DNA of 64,000 bases from an uncultured Bacilli bacterium (GTDB lineage Bacteria > Bacillota_I > Bacilli_A > RF39 > UBA660): assembly GCA_934089275.1 (NCBI GenBank), contig CAKOJJ010000002.1:10732-74731 (forward strand), in the 5' to 3' direction. Positions 29,335-64,000 of this stretch are shown one piece after another. The notes under the pieces are model-generated. The model did no database searches and had not been told where the DNA came from. It was given only the letters and a program-made list of their open reading frames with translations. Numbering within the stretch: the first letter of the stretch is position 1; every line of letters begins with the position of its first letter. The position numbers and the translations under genes are program-made.

Positions 29335-29358
29335 AAAGCCTTTATTTAAAGGCTTTTA
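29335..29358 (-). terminator. terminator hairpin directly after the SEC-C gene remnant
   Basis: AAAAGCCTTTA-tt-TAAAGGCTTTT, a perfect stem with A/T runs on both sides. Confidence 0.6.
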
Positions 29359-29359
29359 A

Positions 29360-29407
29360 CTATTTTCCACAACATTGCTTATATTTTTTTCCTGAGCCAC
29401 ATGGATA
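29360..29407 (-). pseudogene. orphan 3' end (last 15 codons) of a SEC-C (SecA-type metal-binding) motif gene
   Basis: Minus strand reads TAG|YPCGSGKKYKQCCGK|TAG, a textbook SEC-C motif. A stop lies immediately upstream, and none of the three frames upstream continues the gene. Confidence 0.55.
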
Positions 29408-29419
29408 CTATTTTGCTAT

Positions 29420-29540: not shown

Positions 29541-29643
29541 GATTATGGTTAAATGTTGGTGCTAACATTCTTTAACTCATTGAGTATTATACCATATTTT
29601 TATTTAAGTTTCTACATTTCAAATAATAATCTTTTCCACAATG

Positions 29644-29676
29644 ACTTGACTTTTAGCTGATAATAAGTGATTAATA
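29644..29676 (+). promoter_or_regulatory. promoter-like block P1 (ACTTGACTT-N11-TAAGTGATTAATA)
   Basis: Contains TTGACT (29646-29651) and an A/T-rich -10-like region about 27 nt upstream of the ATG at 29703. Near-identical block at 33673-33705. Confidence 0.5.
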
Positions 29677-29702
29677 TAACAAAATTAGAAAAGGAGGAAA
29701 AA

Positions 29703-29906
29703 ATGGAATTTGTAATAAAGCCAAGAAATAAAATCGAATATAAAACTCGTAAAAAATTACTTAAAGGAAAATTCTCAGTCAAGAATATTTCCATTAGTAT
29801 TACCTCAGATGATCCATCTGATTTATCTATATTAGCAATGCACAAAAATCTTATTGAAAAAGCAATCGTTGATAAAATAAACAAAGAATTTTACTTTAAT
29901 GATTAG
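29703..29906 (+). CDS. hypothetical small protein (accessory cassette gene 1)
   Basis: Start at MEFVIK, behind AAAGGAGGAAAAA. The ORF-track GTG start at 29667 lies inside the promoter block. Confidence 0.5.
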   Translation: MEFVIKPRNKIEYKTRKKLLKGKFSVKNISISITSDDPSDLSILAMHKNLIEKAIVDKINKEFYFND

Positions 29907-29929
29907 TCTACCAAACTAAGCAAAATATT
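29903..29929 (+). repeat. copy A of the 27-nt element TTAGTCTACCAAACTAAGCAAAATATT
   Basis: Exact reverse-complement identity to 62367-62393. It begins at the stop codon of gene 1. Confidence 0.9.
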
Positions 29930-29950
29930 TTATATAGAAAGGATTAAAAA

Positions 29951-30205
29951 ATGAATAAACGTCAAATCGAATTATTAAATTTTGTTGGTTTCCAAGTTGA
30001 TGGAGATAATATCAAATGGAAAAACAATTCACTTGCTTCTATTTTCTTTGATAAAAATTCTGGATTATTTAGCATAAAAGTACAAGAACATAATTTCGCC
30101 CCTGGAGATTATAACTCTATTGAATATCTTTCCATTGATTTAAATCATATGTTAGGGTTAGTTTATGAATTAAATTCTATTAAGGAGGTATCTAATGAAA
30201 ACTAA
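29951..30205 (+). CDS. hypothetical protein (accessory cassette gene 2)
   Basis: 84-aa ORF with RBS AAAGGA; no family recognised. Confidence 0.5.
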   Translation: MNKRQIELLNFVGFQVDGDNIKWKNNSLASIFFDKNSGLFSIKVQEHNFAPGDYNSIEYLSIDLNHMLGLVYELNSIKEVSNEN

Positions 30206-30559: not shown

Positions 30560-32353
30560 TTATGCTATCTGCATTTTCCAATTATTAATAACTTCTTTGG
30601 TTTTTTCACTCCAAATTTTAAAATCTTTAGAATTAAAAGCCACTTTATGTATTTCAACTAATAATTCAACCAGATTACCTATTTTTATATTATGATTATA
30701 AATAAATTTAATTATATCCTGATATTGAACAATAGTTAATGGAACTACTGGAACAGGTTTTCCAACCCAGCTTTCTCTATTTAAAACAAAGAATTGCCAA
30801 TTCGTTCTAATATTTATAGATGTTGATATAAACAAGCCTAACACATCTTTTTCTTGATAAGCATCAATAAAACTTAAAACATGATCTATTACACTTGATG
30901 CTTCATGTTCCCATTGTCTGACTCCTGTCATCAATGATACTTCTGGTAAAACAACATAATTTTCATAATACAATTCCATATCTGGTGTGTTTCCTACACC
31001 TGGTGCAAAACTTTTTGGTGTTAAGTCCTCTTCCACATTAAAGTTTCTTTTGACCTTCTTTTCCCCGTCAATTGCTAATAAAGATTTCCAAGTGTTTACT
31101 TCTAACCATAGGGCACTCATATCTTCATTTCCTAATATATCTTCATATTTATCCAAAATTTCATTTCTTGCCTTTGTAGTTTTAGCAATAAATTCGATAT
31201 ATTTTTTTTCATTCAATCCTGTTATATAATCAACAGTTTCTTTTTCTATAATTTTTATTGCAGTATCATCATTATTAGCAACTGTACTCAATTTTTTCTT
31301 TAAGGTTGCAACTTGAGTATCTATATTCTCTTTTATTGAAACGTTATAATTATCTTTGATGTTTTCTACAAGAGGAATATTATTTAAGTATTCAATTTTA
31401 TCTACAACAAGTTTTCTTCTTTCAATTGGATTATCCCAAGGTAATGTTGTTGCATTAGGATTTCCATACCACTCCATATATTCATCAATTGAAGAAAACT
31501 GAGTTGTTTTAAATTCATAAGTGTTAAGTAATAAATCAACTTTCGATTTTGAATAATCATTTACTCTTACCTTTGTAGCATAACTTCTTCCTGATAAATT
31601 AAATAAGCCTGTATATACAAGACTTCTACAAAAAGCTTCTGCATAATCATAATATGAACCTATTTGATTATCAATGCTACCATATGCATCAATAAATGTT
31701 TTCTCACATATACTTTTAACCATTCCAGTATCATTTTTGTTTGAAAGAGCATTATATCTTTCCCTAAATAATGATATTGCCTTGTACATTTTTTCCATTT
31801 GACATCTTTTAGTACATCCAAACAAAAATACTATCTCACTTCTATTTAAAAAACCAAATTTATTTATGGCTTTTAATAATAACTCCATTGGAAATATTCC
31901 ATCATTTTCATCTAAATCTGATTTTGTTGAAACTTTATTAGGAAAGTATAACTTTAACAATTGTTTTAAAAAATCTTCTGCATCAAATGTATCATTTAAA
32001 ATCAAATTCCCTACTTTAGTATTGTGAATTATTCCTCTATCATCAACATAACCAAAGCCAAAAAATTCAAATGATATCTTATCGTTTCTACCATTGCTTT
32101 CAGTTTCTTTTACATCATAATTTCCTGTTACATATTGACTATAATTTAACGAACTTAAAAAAGTATCTTCTTCACGATGAGCATTATATATGTATTCTCT
32201 TCTAATAGGCATCACTTTTCTTTTTGTAAATTTACTTTCGTGATCTTCATCTTTTTCGTTCCAGTTCTTGCCATCTAGTTTACCAAATTCTTTATACCAT
32301 TGTACTGTTTTGATTATACTTCTTGGCTTTGTTCTCCACCACCAACTTGCCAT
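30560..32353 (-). CDS. type IIS restriction endonuclease, AlwI family-like (AlwI/MlyI/PleI/N.BstNBI group)
   Basis: The C-terminal catalytic region GNTPDMELYYENYVVLPEVSLMTG...EASSVIDH and CRSLVYTGLF resemble, from memory, N.BstNBI GNQPDMEIIYEDFIVLGEVTTSKG and RYFRYTGLF. It lies immediately downstream of a DNA MTase. Confidence 0.55.
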   Translation of the reverse strand: MASWWWRTKPRSIIKTVQWYKEFGKLDGKNWNEKDEDHESKFTKRKVMPIRREYIYNAHREEDTFLSSLNYSQYVTGNYDVKETESNGRNDKISFEFFGFGYVDDRGIIHNTKVGNLILNDTFDAEDFLKQLLKLYFPNKVSTKSDLDENDGIFPMELLLKAINKFGFLNRSEIVFLFGCTKRCQMEKMYKAISLFRERYNALSNKNDTGMVKSICEKTFIDAYGSIDNQIGSYYDYAEAFCRSLVYTGLFNLSGRSYATKVRVNDYSKSKVDLLLNTYEFKTTQFSSIDEYMEWYGNPNATTLPWDNPIERRKLVVDKIEYLNNIPLVENIKDNYNVSIKENIDTQVATLKKKLSTVANNDDTAIKIIEKETVDYITGLNEKKYIEFIAKTTKARNEILDKYEDILGNEDMSALWLEVNTWKSLLAIDGEKKVKRNFNVEEDLTPKSFAPGVGNTPDMELYYENYVVLPEVSLMTGVRQWEHEASSVIDHVLSFIDAYQEKDVLGLFISTSINIRTNWQFFVLNRESWVGKPVPVVPLTIVQYQDIIKFIYNHNIKIGNLVELLVEIHKVAFNSKDFKIWSEKTKEVINNWKMQIA

Positions 32354-32364
32354 ATTTTCATCTC

Positions 32365-33507
32365 CTAAAATTCATAATTTGTTATTATTAAGTGTTCAAC
32401 TTTTTTATCATTTCTATTTTTTATACTTACTAAATATTTCTTGTCAAATGATTTAATGTAAAATCCATTTTTATTATATAGATCATATATAAAATCTGTA
32501 TTTTTAATTATAAGCATAAATTTAGCCTTAGTATGATTTAAGTAATTTGCTAATCTAATTTGATCCTGCTTTCCAAATTCATTATTAGCATATGTTGAAA
32601 ATTCAGTATCATATGGTGGATCTAAAAACATAAAATCATTTTCATTTAAATCTATTTTTTCGCAAAATTCTTCGAAGTCTAAATTATATATTTGAGTATT
32701 TCGTAAATAATTACGGAGTTCATCTGAATTTAAATGTTTAATTTTTTTGCCAAAGTCTTTTCTATTATAACTGATTCCCCCATAAGGAACATTAAATTTT
32801 CCACTTGCATTATATCTAAACATTGATGCATAACAATATTCTCTTATAAAATAGAATATTGCACAATAAAATTCATTATCTATACCTAATTCTTTTCTGT
32901 TATTATACAAATATCTAAAATGCATATAATACGCACTTTTTAGAGCACACTCAATATTTTCTAACACATTATCATCTTTCATTTTTTCTCTTTTTGCTTC
33001 TATTTTTTGCATTCTTTCAATTTTTGATGATAAATTTCTTTTAACCTCATTAATAAAATTGTCTATGTTAATATTAAAATGTTCAGTTAATAACCCATTA
33101 AATTCCTTTGAATGCTCAAAAACAAACTCATATATTTTATCTTTTAAATTTGTTGATAATTTTTTTCTATTTTCTTCAATTTGACAGTCTTTCGAATATG
33201 ATAAATATATATTTAGTAATTCGTTACTGTTATTTTGAACTATTTTTTCTAATAGTTTCCAGTTTTTATTTATTTCATTTAATTTATTAATAAATTTCTT
33301 ATTTCCTGCCTTTATTAAATTATACAATAATATGAGTTCATCTGATTTATCATTTATAATTGAGTTTTTACAATTAACATTAAGATATACGGAACCTCCA
33401 CCAACAAATGGCTCTATATATCTATCATAACTTTCGGGCATATTTTCTAAAATTATAGGTAATTCCTTTTCTTTACCACCTGCCCATTTTATAAATGATT
33501 TTTCCAT
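32365..33507 (-). CDS. Dam-family (D12 class) N6-adenine DNA methyltransferase with a large internal insertion
   Basis: FIKWAGGKEKE, EPFVGGGSV (SAM motif) and FLDPPY (catalytic). 380 aa, versus the roughly 270-290 aa I recall for typical Dam. Confidence 0.85.
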   Translation of the reverse strand: MEKSFIKWAGGKEKELPIILENMPESYDRYIEPFVGGGSVYLNVNCKNSIINDKSDELILLYNLIKAGNKKFINKLNEINKNWKLLEKIVQNNSNELLNIYLSYSKDCQIEENRKKLSTNLKDKIYEFVFEHSKEFNGLLTEHFNINIDNFINEVKRNLSSKIERMQKIEAKREKMKDDNVLENIECALKSAYYMHFRYLYNNRKELGIDNEFYCAIFYFIREYCYASMFRYNASGKFNVPYGGISYNRKDFGKKIKHLNSDELRNYLRNTQIYNLDFEEFCEKIDLNENDFMFLDPPYDTEFSTYANNEFGKQDQIRLANYLNHTKAKFMLIIKNTDFIYDLYNKNGFYIKSFDKKYLVSIKNRNDKKVEHLIITNYEF

Positions 33508-33616: not shown

Positions 33617-33672
33617 GTAATTATATCATAAAAAATTTTTTTTCAAAAGATTATGACAAAATTTTTTTAATT

Positions 33673-33705
33673 ACTTGACTTATTTATTTTTTTAAGTGAT
33701 TAATA
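33673..33705 (+). promoter_or_regulatory. promoter-like block P2 (ACTTGACTT-N11-TAAGTGATTAATA)
   Basis: Same 9-mer and 13-mer, with the same spacing, as 29644-29676. Confidence 0.5.
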
Positions 33706-33728
33706 CTATCAAACTGGAGGTGATTTCA

Positions 33729-36185: not shown

Positions 36186-36596
36186 CTATTTTGTTCTTTT
36201 CCACATATATACTGCTAAGTATGGTGGCATATTGCTAAATTCCTTCGAATTTGCAAATCCTCCATCATTCAAACATATATTAGCCCAAGTATTTGTTATA
36301 CCTGTGTTACATCCACATCCATATTTTGTTCCACTAACTGATTGTCGAACCATAGCTCTCGAAGGTAAGTTTGCTTCTGATAATTTTGTTGTTGCATTGC
36401 CCCCTTGAGTTGCATTCTTATATGTATTTCCACAAGCTAATAAAAACTTATCTTTTATTTGTTCCCATGTTCCACCAAAAAAAGTTGATGGATTTATTTC
36501 AGTAACTGATATATATACACTACCTACTGGATAATATGGGCAAGGATAAATGTAATCATTATCTTTATTTTTAAACTTAATTGCTTTATTTCCCAT
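36186..36596 (-). CDS. tail-tip / baseplate fibre-like protein, paralog of 36983..37459
   Basis: Shares the N-terminus NKAIKFKNK..YPCPYYPVGSVY...FFGGTWEQIKDKFL and the C-terminus PPYLAVYMWKR with the 158-aa ORF. Confidence 0.55.
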   Translation of the reverse strand: MGNKAIKFKNKDNDYIYPCPYYPVGSVYISVTEINPSTFFGGTWEQIKDKFLLACGNTYKNATQGGNATTKLSEANLPSRAMVRQSVSGTKYGCGCNTGITNTWANICLNDGGFANSKEFSNMPPYLAVYMWKRTK

Positions 36597-36983: not shown

Positions 36984-37459
36984 TACTCTATTCTCCTCCA
37001 AATATAAACTGCTAAATATGGTGGTAGAGAACTGCTCAAGTCTGTATCTCCTATTGAATATCTAATAGAATCTGTTAATGTTCCACCACTGGATTGATTA
37101 TGTCCAGAATTATAATTATCAGATGAAGTTAGTTCTGTACCATAACTTTTAGAATATCTGCCTTTTTCATAACTCCATGCTCCTTGATTAGCATAATTGT
37201 CACACATAATTTCATAGTAATTCATTCTATGTCCTATTTTAAAGTCATGTCTATGACTTTGGCTTCCACCCATTGTTCCAGCCTTATAAGAGTTACCTGC
37301 TCCAATTAAAAATCGATCTTTTATCAATTCCCATGTTCCTCCAAAATACGTTGACGGATTAACATCATTTAAAGATAAATAAATACTACCTATTGGATAA
37401 TATGAACATGGATAAACTGGTTCATTGTTTTTATTTTTAAACTTTATTGCTTTACTCAT
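36983..37459 (-). CDS. tail-tip / baseplate fibre-like protein
   Basis: MSKAIKFKNKNNEPVYPCSYYPIGSIY...GGTWELIKDRFL...PPYLAVYIWRR. Confidence 0.55.
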   Translation of the reverse strand: MSKAIKFKNKNNEPVYPCSYYPIGSIYLSLNDVNPSTYFGGTWELIKDRFLIGAGNSYKAGTMGGSQSHRHDFKIGHRMNYYEIMCDNYANQGAWSYEKGRYSKSYGTELTSSDNYNSGHNQSSGGTLTDSIRYSIGDTDLSSSLPPYLAVYIWRRIE

Positions 37460-60903: not shown

Positions 60904-61226
60904 TTAGTTCTAATTGTAATGTAGGCTGATTTTTTTCCATCCATTGTTACATATTTATCATATAAGTCTGGATTTTCTTCTTGAAACTTTTCTTTATTAA
61001 ATTTTTCAAGATTTGTTTGCTCTGCAATATAAGAAATTGAAAGTCCTGTTATTTCATCTGCAATTTTTATTACACCTTTTGCTTCCATTGCTTCTTTTAT
61101 TGTCTTTTTATATCCATCTTGAATTGCTTTTAATTCTTTAATTTTCTTTTCAATGTCTATAAGATTATCAACCATTCTTGATGCAAGAATAGGTTTATCA
61201 TTTTCAATTACTATTAAGTCTTTCAT
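60900..61226 (-). CDS. hypothetical coiled-coil phage protein
   Basis: 108-aa ORF between the ERF and exonuclease genes. Confidence 0.45.
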   Translation of the reverse strand: MKDLIVIENDKPILASRMVDNLIDIEKKIKELKAIQDGYKKTIKEAMEAKGVIKIADEITGLSISYIAEQTNLEKFNKEKFQEENPDLYDKYVTMDGKKSAYITIRTK

Positions 61227-61897
61227 TATTTTTCCTCTTTTCTATCTTTAATAATTTTTGAAGCATTTTCCATTGATAATTCATCAACTTTTGATACTTT
61301 GTAGCTATTTTTTAAAATTTCTTTTAAACCTTTTACATCATCTTTAAACAGATTCTTTATAGCTGTTTTTTGTCCTGGAGTTATTGTTCCTTTTTTAAGT
61401 TTAGGACTTTGTACCTGCTTTTTATAATTATTTGATTTTGAAGAGTTCTTTTCATCCTCTCGTTCTGGATCATCCTGAGTTGCAACTAAAAATGTTGAAG
61501 ATAAAAATCTTTTTAATGCTCCAGTTGTAGCTTTATATCCTGCTTTATCTCCACGATCAAGCCCCTCTCCAGTATGTTTACTTGTTTCTGTAAATCCCGT
61601 ATCAATATCAATTAGTGTACAAGCAAGTGTTACTGTTCTTCCAAATGGTTGCTTATCAGTTCCTTCAAATGTTCCATAGTCTATTTCATCAACAAACAAT
61701 TCAATTCCATATTCACTGAATAATTCTGTGAATAATTCTTTATATTGTGCCTCGCTAAAATATTGGTAGTTATCATATTCGTTAACTTCTCCATTTGTTA
61801 ATTTTCCCTTTTCTTTTAAGGCTTTTCTTATTTTGTTTTTCTTTTGTTGCAATTTGGCACATAATTCAAGTGTATTAGTTGGTGCATTATCCTGCAT
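61226..61897 (-). CDS. ERF-family single-strand annealing protein
   Basis: YQYFSEAQYKELFTELFSEYGIEL and GDKAGYKATTGALKRFLSSTFLVATQDDPE parallel P22 Erf YKYRSCEDILEGVKPLL and AAQVTGATSSYARKYCLNGLFGIDD. Confidence 0.6.
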   Translation of the reverse strand: MQDNAPTNTLELCAKLQQKKNKIRKALKEKGKLTNGEVNEYDNYQYFSEAQYKELFTELFSEYGIELFVDEIDYGTFEGTDKQPFGRTVTLACTLIDIDTGFTETSKHTGEGLDRGDKAGYKATTGALKRFLSSTFLVATQDDPEREDEKNSSKSNNYKKQVQSPKLKKGTITPGQKTAIKNLFKDDVKGLKEILKNSYKVSKVDELSMENASKIIKDRKEEK

Positions 61898-62150
61898 TAG
61901 TTACACCTCCTTGATCTGCCAATTTTCTTAATCTCTTTTCATCGATATTAAAATATTTAATTACATATTCCATTGATACTAAATATCTTGGAAATACTAA
62001 ACCATCATCGACCATTTGGTTTCTAATTTCATTTTTTATTTTAAGGGCTTTGTTATACCCAACACATCCTATCTTTTGAATATCTGCTGTTGATGCCCAC
62101 AATTTATTTATTGTTTTTAATACTTGATTAGCATTCATACTTTTATTCAT
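61887..62150 (-). CDS. small DNA-binding protein, excisionase-like (ICEBs1 Xis-type pattern)
   Basis: WASTADIQKIGCVGYNKALKIKNEIRNQM..GLVFPRYLVSMEYVIKYF resembles Xis/HTH_17-type proteins. Start at ATG 62150 (AGGTG RBS). Confidence 0.35.
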   Translation of the reverse strand: MNKSMNANQVLKTINKLWASTADIQKIGCVGYNKALKIKNEIRNQMVDDGLVFPRYLVSMEYVIKYFNIDEKRLRKLADQGGVTNAG

Positions 62151-62310
62151 GCTCACACCTCGTTTCTATAATAACTGTAGGTGCTTCTGTGTTTCTTATT
62201 AATTGGTTCAATTTTTGACCAACAAAAAACAACTGTACTATTATTAACATTTCTGGTAATAATAACAGAGTTGCCTTAACCCAAGGCTTTAATATTATTT
62301 TCTTTTTCAT
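62143..62310 (-). CDS. 55-aa small membrane protein
   Basis: MKKKIILKPWVKATLLLLPEMLIIVQLFFVG... RBS AAAGGAA. The stop overlaps the next ATG (ATGAATAA). Below the ORF-track cutoff. Confidence 0.5.
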   Translation of the reverse strand: MKKKIILKPWVKATLLLLPEMLIIVQLFFVGQKLNQLIRNTEAPTVIIETRCEHE

Positions 62311-62345
62311 TTTTCGTTCCTTTCTTTATTTGATTTTTGTTCAGT

Positions 62346-62393
62346 TTAGTTTGGTAGACTAACTATAATATTTTGCTTAGTTTGGTAGACTAA
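62346..62393 (-). repeat. copies C (62346-62362) and B (62367-62393) of the TTAGTCTACCAAACTAA element, in tandem
   Basis: Minus strand reads GTTAGTCTACCAAACTAAGCAAAATATTATAGTTAGTCTACCAAACTAAACTG. Copy B overlaps the last codons of the Cro-like gene. Confidence 0.9.
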
Positions 62394-62610
62394 CATTTTC
62401 TTTATTACCATTTTGGTAAGTAGATGGTAAAAAAATTTCTTCAAGTGACTTTTTAAAATACTTGGACAGAGCAAACATTTCATCACTCGTAAATTGCGAG
62501 ATGCCTTTTTCTTTGTTGCAATATGTCCTTTTTGTGATATTTAAGTATTCTGCTAAGTCTTTTTGTCGTACATTGTAGACTTTTCTGAGCTTTACTAACT
62601 TTTCTTGCAT
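62377..62610 (-). CDS. Cro-like XRE-family HTH regulator
   Basis: VRQKDLAEYLNITKRTYCNKEKG; divergent from the CI-like gene. Confidence 0.8.
   Translation of the reverse strand: MQEKLVKLRKVYNVRQKDLAEYLNITKRTYCNKEKGISQFTSDEMFALSKYFKKSLEEIFLPSTYQNGNKENVSLPN
62405..62419. promoter_or_regulatory. operator-like palindrome O3 (TTACCA-TTT-TGGTAA)
   Basis: A perfect 6-3-6 inverted repeat inside the 3' part of the cro-like gene, with the same TACCA-N3-TGGTA core as O1 and O2. Confidence 0.45.
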
Positions 62611-62646
62611 CTTATTTCTTCCTCCTTCCTATCTAATGACACTCAC

Positions 62647-62675
62647 ATTATAATACCAATTTGGTAATATTACAA
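62647..62675 (-). promoter_or_regulatory. lytic (cro-ward) promoter with embedded operator O1
   Basis: Minus strand reads TTGTAA-17 nt-TATAAT. The spacer contains the palindrome TACCAA-A-TTGGTA (plus coordinates 62654-62666). Confidence 0.6.
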
Positions 62676-62714
62676 TAGTTTTTTGAAATTTTTTTCTTTT
62701 TTTTTGAAATATTA

Positions 62715-62743
62715 TTCCATTTTGGTAAGTTTTATGCTATAAT
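62715..62743 (+). promoter_or_regulatory. repressor (CI-ward) promoter with operator O2
   Basis: Extended -10 TGcTATAAT (62735-62743). The half-degenerate operator TTCCA-TTT-TGGTA (62715-62727) overlaps the -35 position. Confidence 0.55.
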
Positions 62744-62762
62744 CAGCTTATGGAGGTGCAAT

Positions 62763-63404
62763 ATGGATATTAATAAATATGTTGCCGATAAAATTAAATA
62801 TTATCGAATCCAGAGAAATTTGTCCCAGGAAGAAGTTGCTGAAGAATTAGAAACTTCTGCAGTAAATATTTCAAGATATGAAAATGGTGATAGAAAAACT
62901 AATCAAGATATATTATTTAAATTAAGCCAACTATTTGGTGTATCTATTAATGATTTTTTCCCACCTGTTGATAATGCAAAATATATTGACCTTATATCTA
63001 ATACTATCAAGATTCCAGTTCTTGGTTTTATAAAAGCAGGTGTTCCTATTGAGGCACAAGAAGATATTATTGATTATGTAGATATTCCTGCAATATGGAC
63101 AAAAGGTGGCAAAGACTTTTATGCCCTAAAAATTTCTGGAGATAGCATGACTCCTAAATATAATGAAGGAGACATTGTTATTTTTGAACAAACAAAAGAC
63201 TATGAAGCAGGACGAAACAAAGATTGTGCTGTTATGGTCAATTGTACTGAATGTACTTTTAAAAAGGTATTTATTGATGAACATGGTATAACATTACAAC
63301 CTTATAACATGAATTACGAACCAATGCGATTCACAAAAGAACAAGCTATGCAACTACCTATTACTGTAGTAGGAATTGCAAAAGAAAAAAGAGTATCTTT
63401 ATAA
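62763..63404 (+). CDS. CI-like repressor: XRE HTH + S24 (LexA-type) autopeptidase domain
   Basis: HTH LSQEEVAEELETSAVNISRYENG. Peptidase motifs ISGDSMTPKY (Ser) and TFKKV (Lys). Confidence 0.88.
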   Translation: MDINKYVADKIKYYRIQRNLSQEEVAEELETSAVNISRYENGDRKTNQDILFKLSQLFGVSINDFFPPVDNAKYIDLISNTIKIPVLGFIKAGVPIEAQEDIIDYVDIPAIWTKGGKDFYALKISGDSMTPKYNEGDIVIFEQTKDYEAGRNKDCAVMVNCTECTFKKVFIDEHGITLQPYNMNYEPMRFTKEQAMQLPITVVGIAKEKRVSL

Positions 63405-63410
63405 AAAAAA

Positions 63411-63434
63411 GACCTACTGTTCGAACAGTAGATC
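63411..63434. terminator. palindromic hairpin between CI and int
   Basis: CTACTGTTC|GAACAGTAG (63414-63431) is a perfect 9+9 palindrome. The A8 run lies upstream on the plus strand, so the U-tract is on the minus-strand side only. Confidence 0.45.
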
Positions 63435-63444
63435 ATGAAAACCG

Positions 63445-63470
63445 TTAGTCTACCAAACTAAACAAAATAT
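63445..63470 (+). repeat. copy D of the element (TTAGTCTACCAAACTAAACAAAATAT)
   Basis: The 17-mer is identical to copies A, B and C. Overall 25/26 identity to copy A. Confidence 0.9.
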
Positions 63471-63575
63471 CCAATAAAGAATATAATGCCTGGGTCTTCA
63501 TCCTGTATTATATCACTTTCATTGGATTTGCACAAGTTTTATGGCAAAAATAATTTAAAAGGAGAGTGATATTTT

Positions 63576-64000
63576 ATGCCTATATATAAATCTAAAACAC
63601 CCACAAAGGACGGCAGATGTTGGTTCTATAAGGTGCAATATCCAGATAATTTTAATAATATAAAAGTTTCAATTAGTAAAAAATTTGCTACCAAGACAGA
63701 AGCAAAAGATGCAGAAAGAATTTTCTTAACTTCTGTAAAAGATGAGCAAAAAATTCCAAGCAAAATGACTATCGGTGAGTTATGGGATACTTTTCTTTCA
63801 TATCAAGATTCTAGAGTTCGTATTTCTACTAAAAGAGGTTATCATCATACTGCTAAATACATTGAACCAGTTTTTAAAATAAAAGTCACAGAATTTGATT
63901 TACAAAAATATGAAGCTTGGTTAAATGATTTAAGAGCTAAAGACAACTTAAACCTTGTTTCAAAAAACGATAAATTAAAAGTATTCAGAGCTTTACTTAA
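63576..64000 (+). CDS. int: tyrosine integrase, N-terminal part (gene runs off the right edge)
   Basis: Not in the ORF track. RBS AAAGGAGAG. MPIYKSKTPTKDGRCWFYKVQY... (arm-binding-type N-terminus), followed by a SAM-like core-binding region TIGELWDTFLSY... Confidence 0.8.
   Translation, partial: MPIYKSKTPTKDGRCWFYKVQYPDNFNNIKVSISKKFATKTEAKDAERIFLTSVKDEQKIPSKMTIGELWDTFLSYQDSRVRISTKRGYHHTAKYIEPVFKIKVTEFDLQKYEAWLNDLRAKDNLNLVSKNDKLKVFRALL

Follow-up and report, generated by a model that had tools for sequence, protein, structure and literature searches.

A repeated element in the immunity region of a gut prophage

Analysis of 64,000 nt of genomic DNA from an uncultured Bacilli bacterium (contig CAKOJJ010000002.1; "the window" below means this whole stretch) revealed a 17-mer, TTAGTCTACCAAACTAA, that is present in four copies within a prophage and that probably belongs to an antisense RNA circuit. 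In the reading that we favor, copy D, between the CI-like repressor gene and the integrase gene int, lies in the gene of an antisense small RNA (sRNA), and copies A, B and C are target sites in trans, through which the first early gene and an accessory gene would be repressed by base pairing. The sequence comparisons gave four direct observations: the repeat itself, its confinement to one group of phages, a conserved structured RNA on the strand opposite copy D, and co-variation of the sRNA with its sites across phage lineages. The four copies are located as follows.

29903-29919, plus strand: copy A, between accessory genes 1 and 2
62377-62393, minus strand: copy B, cro side
62346-62362, minus strand: copy C, cro side, in tandem with B
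63445-63461, plus strand: copy D, between the CI-like gene and int; on the minus strand, hairpin P3 of the predicted sRNA

The window holds exactly four matches to the 17-mer, also when two mismatches are allowed, against a chance expectation of 0.03 from dinucleotide shuffles, and four copies were reached in 0 of 100 shuffles. Copies A and B share an uninterrupted identity of 27 nt (TTAGTCTACCAAACTAAGCAAAATATT); on extension, 35 nt show 91% complementarity, and C and D likewise have an extended similarity. Both the fourfold occurrence and the 27-nt identity, which had been proposed in an initial annotation of this DNA, were thus borne out. The tandem copies B and C are spaced 31 nt start to start in the window versus 28 nt in a related contig (L003), with a spacer between them that is unrelated in sequence between L003/L026 and the window. 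B/C and D form inverted repeats that bracket the cro-CI cassette, 1039 bp apart; a role of this cassette as an invertible switch, or of the copies as its terminal inverted repeats, was unsupported, and copy A does not fit it.

The element is confined to one phage group. No copy occurs in the first 29 kb of the window, which are host DNA, and a scan of one genome per species (185,579 species) found the 17-mer in 18 places, 16 of which were single chance-level matches in unrelated taxa. The other two were bins of metagenome-assembled genomes (MAGs) from one gut sample with the same prophage context, one holding three copies and the other one. IMG/VR and a metagenome collection yielded, besides chance singletons, a few prophage contigs that are related and arranged in the same way; in L003/L026, where the region is 85% identical to that of the window, all three copies present in the contig are intact. 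The features of a dispersed host repeat of the repetitive extragenic palindromic or miniature inverted-repeat transposable element type were therefore absent from the host DNA of the window, from the 185,579 species genomes and from the metagenome scan, which settles in favor of a phage-specific element the question, raised in the initial annotation, of a generic host repeat. Among cultured phages, megablast and blastn found no relative of the immunity region, and the sole similarity of the region to them was ~200 nt of the part of CI encoding the helix-turn-helix, which resembled Streptococcus prophage repressors. A CI-protein search of viral contigs added one distant locus (L027) without the element and without the sRNA.

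Copies A, B and C are oriented sense to the flanking open reading frames (ORFs). All four copies had been assigned the same orientation relative to their neighbors and were expected to be transcribed as the same hairpin; this stands for A, B and C, which are sense to the local mRNA, but is probably wrong for D, which is best explained as part of an RNA of the opposite strand. Nor do all copies lie strictly between cistrons, as had been proposed: copy B falls partly inside the 77-aa cro-like ORF, whose stop codon is the TAA of the element (ORF end VSLPN), and accessory gene 1 has its stop codon within copy A. The proposed RNA hairpin with a 5-bp stem is very weak when the sense strand is folded in isolation (−1.0 kcal/mol, z −0.51), with equally good folds in 37 of 200 shuffles.

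A predicted sRNA gene opposite copy D

The minus strand around copy D carries the features expected of a small, independently transcribed RNA gene, set out below together with a candidate int promoter on the other strand.

63403..63500, minus strand: predicted sRNA gene, ~96-98 nt (from fold, covariance model and covariation)
63507..63535, minus strand: predicted promoter P_as; −35 TTGTGC at 63535-63530, 17-nt spacer, TG at 63515-63514, −10 TATAAT at 63512-63507
63403..63434, minus strand: intrinsic terminator; 10-bp stem at 63434-63411, then T8 at 63410-63403
63482..63487, plus strand: candidate int promoter −10 TATAAT (TAAACA-17-TATAAT, from a promoter scan), 20 nt 3' of copy D and facing P_as

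The predicted RNA consists of a closing stem P1 (5' GAAGACC with GGUUUUC), hairpins P2 and P3, and a terminator hairpin with a U8 tail. P3 is the reverse complement of the 17-mer at copy D and is here named the specificity region; a U:G pair, which the sense strand cannot form, allows it to reach 7 bp on the antisense strand. The predicted start, at ~63499-63501, coincides with the first base of P1, and the terminator overlaps the stop codon of CI. Upstream, a 13-mer, ATTATATCACTTT (window 63507-63519, ~70 nt to the right of the terminator hairpin), is invariant in all aligned lineages, and its reverse complement, AAAGTGATATAAT, is a TGn-extended −10. TTGT stands exactly 17 nt 5' of TATAAT in nine of the nine lineages scanned, with variable spacer sequence in between. 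A terminator scan scored the post-CI hairpin on the minus strand only; on the CI-sense strand, every lineage has an A-run before this hairpin and no T-run after it.

Folding showed the same strand preference. The minimum free energy of the window sRNA is −30.2 kcal/mol (z −4.66) versus −13.0 kcal/mol (z −1.66) for the sense strand, and across lineages the minus strand folds at −25.8 to −30.2 kcal/mol (z −3.6 to −4.7) versus −13 to −21 for the sense strand, the asymmetry also being present in five of the six other lineages tested. The predicted transcript, from 7 nt after the −10 to the T-run, is 98-108 nt long across lineages, and the four-helix architecture (P1, P2, P3 and terminator) is the same in the minus-strand RNA of every lineage.

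A covariance model seeded with only three distant relatives (L087, L088 and L090) found one full-length match per phage, on the predicted strand. In the window it matched 63404-63499 (minus strand) at full length with 41.9 bits and an E value of 1.6e-6, and it had no match in 738 kb of unrelated viral loci chosen for the same −10 motif plus T-run, a control drawn from among the matches listed by a viral-contig search for these two features and made up mostly of chance loci. In a 14-sequence alignment fitted to the structure of the model, 96.1% of cells paired, compared with 78.5% after shuffling (0 of 500 shuffles as high), and sliding the partners by 1-3 columns reduced pairing to at most 52.7%. 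Changes on both sides were seen in 21 of 33 pairs (P1, 7/9; P2, 5/8; P3, 1/7; terminator, 8/9), and ~14% of cells are G:U, valid on the minus strand only. A plain MAFFT alignment of the sRNAs was out of register and for that reason yielded no structure in RNAalifold; the covariance-model alignment was used instead. No Rfam family matched the window at the gathering score; within 63300-63650 there were only chance-level matches (E above 0.7). Fold, covariation, promoter and terminator together predict a structured RNA gene in the immunity region, as a trans-acting antisense immunity RNA would require.

The invariant 13-mer has a counterpart near int. In all related loci an invariant AGTGATAT just 5' of the int ATG (~63564-63573) and ATTATATCACTTT are inverted repeats, and pairing of the two in int mRNA could sequester the stretch between the Shine-Dalgarno sequence and the start codon.

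Complementarity of the predicted sRNA to sites A, B and C

A gapless scan for Watson-Crick and G:U complementarity to the sRNA, covering both strands of the whole 64-kb window, returned sites B, A and C as the top three complements, all on the mRNA-sense strand; the next best were GU-rich runs of at most 19 nt. These sites and the genes that follow them are given below.

62367..62395, minus strand: site B, 29 nt uninterrupted (3 G:U), pairing with sRNA nt 29-57; in the PR (cro) transcript
29903..29930, plus strand: site A, 28 nt (3 G:U), pairing with sRNA nt 28-55
62344..62363, minus strand: site C, 20 nt, perfect, pairing with sRNA nt 37-56
62143..62310, minus strand: first early gene, 55 aa, with a basic N-terminus and one hydrophobic helix, the presumed regulated gene 3' of sites B and C
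29951..30205, plus strand: accessory gene 2, 84 aa, the presumed regulated gene 3' of site A

Site A ends 20 nt 5' of the ATG of gene 2 and site C ends 33 nt 5' of that of the 55-aa gene, where a second, 9-nt match (AAUAAAGAA) adjoins the Shine-Dalgarno sequence. Within the locus, the cro-side copy ranked first in 11 of 12 lineages, with 20-31 nt of complementarity. Three internal differences between CI-side and target copies (window A and B; L081; L087-90) are A-to-G changes that keep a U:G pair. Unconstrained RNAduplex predictions in the relatives often reach the Shine-Dalgarno sequence and serve as a lead only; such energies over-extend duplexes and were used just as a rough contrast with shuffles.

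As a promoter in its own right the element was discarded: copies A, B and C are not followed by a conserved −10 at a constant distance, and the plus-strand TATAAT between C and B is absent in L003.

Co-variation of the predicted sRNA and its sites among related phages

Relatives of the prophage were found in gut metagenomes and IMG/VR through homologues of its 89-aa early protein (57-99% identical). They share a syntenic locus in which int and CI, read toward secA, are divergent from cro and the genes for the 55-aa protein, the 89-aa protein and Erf (secA | int <- CI <- -> cro -> 55 aa -> 89 aa -> Erf). Each carries two hairpin elements, one after cro, just 5' of the ribosome-binding site of the 55-aa gene, and one after the CI hairpin, 5' of int. 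The paired elements are in inverted orientation, identical within a genome over 20-28 nt and different between genomes, giving eight variants among phages that are 48-95% identical in the 89-aa protein.

L068: AAAGT-TTTGCACG-ACTTT
L072: AAAGT-TTTGCACT-ACTTT
L075: AAAGT-TTGCGAC-ACTTT
L080: AAAGT-TCCACA-ACTTT
L081: AAAGT-CTTGCAA(A)-ACTTT
L085 and L091: AAAGT-CTACGAA-ACTTT
L087-L090: AAAGT-CTGCGAA-ACTTT
Window: TTAGT-CTACCAA-ACTAA

RNA and targets change together between these phages, with a single-base exception in L091. In each of two pairs of close lineages a single loop base is different, and the change is mirrored in both copies; the outer stem pairs covary as well (TT..AA versus AA..TT). 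The accessory copies follow the same rule: in contig 3300028833_003330 (loci L090, L092 and L095) the copy after the gene-1 homologue of the accessory operon is the element of its own lineage, and in L092 it is identical to the CI-side copy over 27 nt. Flanks of the cro-side and accessory copies are unrelated while their cores track P3.

This tracking bears on an alternative in which the sRNA is real but acts only in cis, as an antisense RNA to CI-int read-through that interferes with the facing int promoter, copies A-C being no targets and persisting on other grounds, for instance recombination or the binding of a protein. Support for the sRNA gene as such is good, the RNA is complementary to the CI-int spacer throughout, P_as points toward a conserved −10-like box 5' of int, and the trans sites end 20-33 nt before start codons, all of which would suit such a role. 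It leaves unexplained why cro-side and accessory copies track P3 through eight variants within unrelated flanks and why the copies keep a constant mRNA-sense strand, and we consider it unlikely.

Length variation of the central segment, which has 6 nt in L080, 7 nt in the window, L075, L085 and L087, and 8 nt in L068 and L072, argues against a second alternative, a DNA site of 5-7-5 architecture, also raised in the initial annotation. Here the element would be a 17-bp inverted-repeat operator for a dimeric regulator or a recombinase, with D at about −41 of the int promoter and the cro-side copies serving as a roadblock or looping site after cro. Lambda-type operators are of this size, the −35 of the promoter-like TAAACA-17-TATAAT 5' of int overlaps copy D, and B/C and D bracket cro-CI as inverted repeats. 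A center of 6, 7 or 8 bp depending on lineage, with one variant bulged by 1 nt, is nevertheless unfit for a dimer of fixed half-site spacing, and perfect conservation of the center among the copies of one genome is unlike typical operator spacers. Tandem spacing also differs (31 nt in the window, 28 nt in L003), deviations are of the G:U type, the loop is uncoupled from the CI/Cro operators, and the TACCA that the window loop has in common with its operators is not reproduced in any relative. We therefore judge a DNA site very unlikely.

The uncoupling from the operators is clearest in L080, L081 and L091, which have a near-identical O3, the operator next to the cro-side element, and three different loops, so that loop specificity is not tied to the specificity of CI/Cro. 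The loop CTACCAA was rejected as a CI/Cro half-site despite the TACCA that it shares with TTACCA-N3-TGGTAA, given that the loops of relatives are unlike their own operators; the shared TACCA is best read as coincidence.

Two further observations concern how elements and modules are combined. L078/L079 carry the window loop CTACCAA in two tandem copies after cro, with an 89-aa protein 57% identical to that of the window; their 3' arm has one extra base (ACTTAA), giving a bulged stem, and their sRNA locus lies beyond the contig end. The accessory operon is mosaic exactly at the element: in L035 (minus strand, 1010-940) the promoter is joined directly to it, without gene 1, and gene 2 follows; L002 (577-624) has gene 1, the element and a gene 3 homologue, without gene 2; and the window (29667-30205) has all three accessory genes.

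Between the window (61226-64000) and L081, Erf is 94% identical and the int leader is nearly the same, whereas CI is 35% and Cro 21% identical and the sRNA hairpin differs. The immunity-plus-sRNA module has been swapped here as one unit, and one of the junctions falls on or close to the invariant 13-mer.

Exchange of this kind is the starting point for reading the element as a non-regulatory recombination linker, a patch of homology kept identical by Erf and exonuclease that serves or results from module exchange. The initial annotation had suggested a conserved linker for modular exchange, and one part of this agrees with the data: mosaic junctions coincide with the element (L035 without gene 1, L002 without gene 2), phages whose Erf proteins are 94% identical have swapped the immunity-plus-sRNA module, and Erf, a RecE-like domain, exonuclease, SSB and NinB are all encoded by the phage. 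Conservation between phages does not: exchange predicts shared sequence, but the element is private to each lineage and identical only within a genome. The hairpin form, the constant place 5' of ribosome-binding sites and the structured RNA gene at D would also go unexplained, which makes a linker most improbable.

The remaining alternative is that the sense hairpin is the site for a lineage-specific phage protein acting in antitermination, processing or translational control. Placement after cro had led to the proposal of a nut-like site in the initial annotation, and the likeness to lambda nutL/nutR is real in so far as, on either side of the immunity region, the first gene is closely followed by a short hairpin with a phage-specific loop. 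Sense orientation, loops that are identical within and different between genomes as with boxB/N of lambdoid phages, a conserved AGT/ACT stem suggestive of a structural requirement, and G:U-type substitutions that keep the sense hairpin in L081 and L087 all point the same way. Unlike lambda nut, the element has no stable hairpin (−1.0 kcal/mol, not beyond shuffles), no boxA and no N-like protein: PHROG and Pfam scans of the early ORFs at 51.1-62.6 kb yielded recombination, replication and methylase proteins and a late activator-like protein and no N-like protein, although a novel RNA binder could escape them. No arginine-rich or other RNA-binding candidate is at hand, the 55-aa and 89-aa proteins being without family and the rest devoted to recombination and replication. 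Position is wrong relative to terminators, too. In relatives an A/T hairpin plus T8 lies upstream of the element, which is thus after and not before the terminator-like hairpin behind cro; copy D lies after the CI hairpin; and in the window the terminator scan found no minus-strand intrinsic terminator between the cro-side copies and 61800. At copy D, structure, promoter and terminator favor the opposite strand, from which the CI-side copy would be read, and loops differ despite near-identical O3 and Cro proteins ~73% identical. We regard a protein-binding site as unlikely. Of the initial interpretation, phage specificity and action at the RNA level, the latter being the most plausible mode, are retained, and the nut analogy is not.

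Proposed mechanism and points against it

From these sequences we infer production of the RNA, its pairing in vivo, and the sign and mechanism of regulation. In the proposed antisense circuit, the sRNA would be transcribed leftward (~63500->63403) from its own extended −10 promoter between int and the CI gene and would end at the intrinsic terminator adjoining the CI stop codon. The contacts would be made by P3 together with the neighboring 3' portion of P2, which jointly form the reverse complement of the 17-mer plus flanking sequence. Pairing would probably start by loop-loop contact between the P3 loop and the loops of the target hairpins (B and C in the PR transcript, A in the accessory transcript), and the duplex would spread over 20-29 bp. 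Expression of the downstream cistron would then fall, most likely because 30S subunits are hindered in binding or at standby sites, because the duplex is cut as an RNase III substrate, or both. The sRNA would also be fully complementary to any CI-to-int read-through RNA. Because P_as faces the −10-like box at 63482-63487 of the candidate int promoter and the RNA is antisense to CI-int read-through, the sRNA probably restrains int too; relatives have a −10-like hexamer 17-23 nt after the element. In the phage life cycle, the sRNA may serve to maintain lysogeny, to confer superinfection immunity or to set timing.

Several points weigh against this proposal. The −35 of P_as (TTGTGC) is weak, and the promoter was absent from the output of a simple promoter scan. 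The pair counts come from an alignment that was itself fitted to the model structure. The P3 stem (AGT/ACT) is near-invariant across lineages, with one of seven pairs covarying, which goes beyond what complementarity alone requires and makes an additional protein partner possible. In L091 the one difference within the complementary block creates an A:G mismatch, and the bias toward G:U, with three compatible differences and one incompatible, is not statistically significant. Contiguous pairing stops 20-33 nt before the start codons, so direct occlusion of the ribosome-binding site is not assured. Finally, the phage-encoded Erf, exonuclease and NinB could keep short repeats identical by gene conversion.

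A broader role is possible but doubtful: the sRNA may form a second, RNA-based layer of immunity, with specificity in a 6-8-nt loop independent of the CI/Cro operators and with joint control of early, accessory and int genes. If so, phages of equal repressor specificity could differ in RNA immunity, or the reverse, and a possibly toxic membrane protein gene, accessory genes and the integrase would be joined by the sRNA under one control. This would be a previously undescribed and naturally reprogrammable regulatory architecture in Gram-positive temperate siphophages. Under the favored reading itself, the widespread secA-integrating prophages of uncultured gut Bacilli would add to the classical CI/Cro switch an unannotated structured sRNA with a promoter of its own, which would couple the early lytic operon, accessory genes and integrase. 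Natural orthogonal sRNA/target pairs and compensatory variants, defined in silico, are available for its study. More generally, the system would illustrate that a short repeat at a module junction can mark RNA-RNA regulation and need not be a recombination linker.

Comparison with known phage regulatory RNAs

Antisense immunity RNAs with targets in trans are textbook knowledge for P1/P7, P4 and P22, all of which infect enterobacteria; between the related, heteroimmune P1 and P7, the bases that pair differ in the RNA and in its targets alike. Functionally, the P1/P7 c4 RNA and the P4 CI RNA with its seqA/seqC sites are by analogy the closest to the predicted sRNA. Like c4, it would be a small structured phage RNA pairing in trans with short complementary sites 5' of phage genes, and the pairing-base differences between P1 and P7 parallel the lineage-specific loops described here. 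The c4 RNA has 77 nt (table in PMC12197685), represses synthesis of the antirepressor Ant (PMC8546580) and, by the account of Citron & Schuster (1992) given in PMC8546580, is processed out of the operon transcript that it regulates. In contrast, the sRNA described here has its own predicted promoter and terminator, sits, in a Gram-positive siphophage of the CI/Cro type, between repressor and integrase on the strand antisense to the CI-int spacer, and would target the first early gene and an accessory gene instead of an antirepressor. No match of the sRNA to the Rfam C4 family or another described family was found in the window.

In P4, the central sequence of the CI RNA is repeated as complements at two further sites (seqA/seqC), and pairing shuts off early and replication genes (PMC4825925). 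The two systems have in common a core repeated as complements at sites in phage transcripts. However, the P4 CI RNA is processed from the leader of the regulated operon and acts through premature transcription termination in a phage without a CI/Cro-type protein repressor, whereas the prophage of the window also has a classical CI/Cro switch with three operators and the role of its sRNA is a prediction.

P22 sar (68/69 nt) and lambda OOP (77 nt) have their own promoters and control ant and cII, respectively (table in PMC12197685), and sar is listed as trans-acting in the table of that review (PMC12197685). They resemble the predicted sRNA as short antisense RNAs with their own promoters in the immunity or regulatory region of a temperate phage, but their targets overlap their own genes, whereas here 20-29-nt sites also lie 1 kb and 33.5 kb away.

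Type I toxin-antitoxin systems, often prophage-borne, offer another parallel, with a small RNA of which ~20 nt are complementary to the 5' untranslated region of the mRNA for a hydrophobic protein of ~50 aa. In IstR-1/tisB the antitoxin RNA is separately encoded. Type I pairs are present in Clostridioides difficile prophages (PMC7699646). Unlike such stand-alone modules, the 55-aa gene is the first cistron of an early lytic operon behind cro, and a second target precedes an accessory gene whose product is not hydrophobic.

In the table of phage sRNAs in a 2025 review (PMC12197685), SprY is the one Gram-positive entry, and it has no connection with lysogeny control. The predicted sRNA most likely is a Gram-positive counterpart of the P1/P4 antisense immunity RNAs: trans-acting antisense immunity RNAs are known from P1 c4 and P4 CI, and new would be the Gram-positive setting, the dedicated promoter and terminator, and the different targets.

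Organization of the prophage and its immunity region

The prophage is ~35 kb long, from ~29.4 to ~64.9 kb in window-equivalent coordinates, its right end lying beyond the window. The integration site is the 3' end of secA, and the coding sequence for the SEC-C zinc-binding motif is re-created at both ends.

Near 29400 and ~64,900 (window-equivalent): att core, ~CCACTTCCACAAGGA, in the 3' end of secA
Window ~29340-29410; L025 5990-6221; L068-L075 1-1300: integration-end regions compared
62763-63404, plus strand: CI, 213 aa, S24-type
62377-62610, minus strand: Cro, 77 aa, XRE family, divergent from CI
62409-62423, 62654-62668 and 62713-62727: three operators, TTACCA-N3-TGGTAA

Candidate Int arm-type repeats, AAAACGTATCTAA, lie ~90-120 bp from the att core on both sides. 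The 17-mer was rejected as an Int arm-type site because this different repeat occupies the att arms; nor are its copies clustered within ~150 bp of the att core, their distances being 0.5, 1.5 and 2.5 kb.

Operator O3, ~230 bp away from the other two and directly upstream of copy B, falls within the 3'-terminal part of the cro ORF. Relatives have operators at the same three positions with sequences of their own (TACGGT-N3-ACCGTA, TTCCGA-N4-TCGGAA and TTACGA-N5-TCGTAA), and this conserved layout suggests repressor looping as in TP901-1-type switches. After the cro stop codon, the relatives (L068 3740-3775, L075 3725-3760, L085 and L087) show an A-rich tract, a weak A/T hairpin that may be a weak terminator, a conserved ATTTTTTTTACTG and then O3; the window counterpart of this hairpin sequence is inside its longer cro ORF.

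The early genes after cro encode the 55-aa and 89-aa proteins, Erf, exonuclease, SSB, NinB, replication proteins and a late-activator-like protein, and a RecE-like domain is encoded as well. The 55-aa protein has no Pfam or PHROG family; at this position it is 43-61% identical in the relatives compared, and the gene is called there in further relatives. The 89-aa protein has just a weak excisionase-like match (PHROG/Pfam), and one close homologue is annotated as from a Bacilli MAG. Terminases of Lactobacillus delbrueckii phages share 64% identity with that of the prophage.

The accessory region at 30560-33507 (minus strand) encodes an AlwI-family restriction endonuclease (597 aa) and a D12-class N6-adenine methyltransferase (380 aa), likely a prophage-borne restriction-modification system. 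Two 50-nt promoter-like blocks, at 29640-29689 and 33669-33718 (plus strand), are 70% identical (ACTTGACT...AAGTGATTAATA), lie 5' of two accessory gene groups and probably represent a shared moron promoter. In the tail/lysis-proximal gene block, a 29-nt motif occurs in three copies at gene ends, and a 180-nt direct repeat (36409-36588 versus 37275-37454, 74% identity) may reflect duplicated small structural genes.

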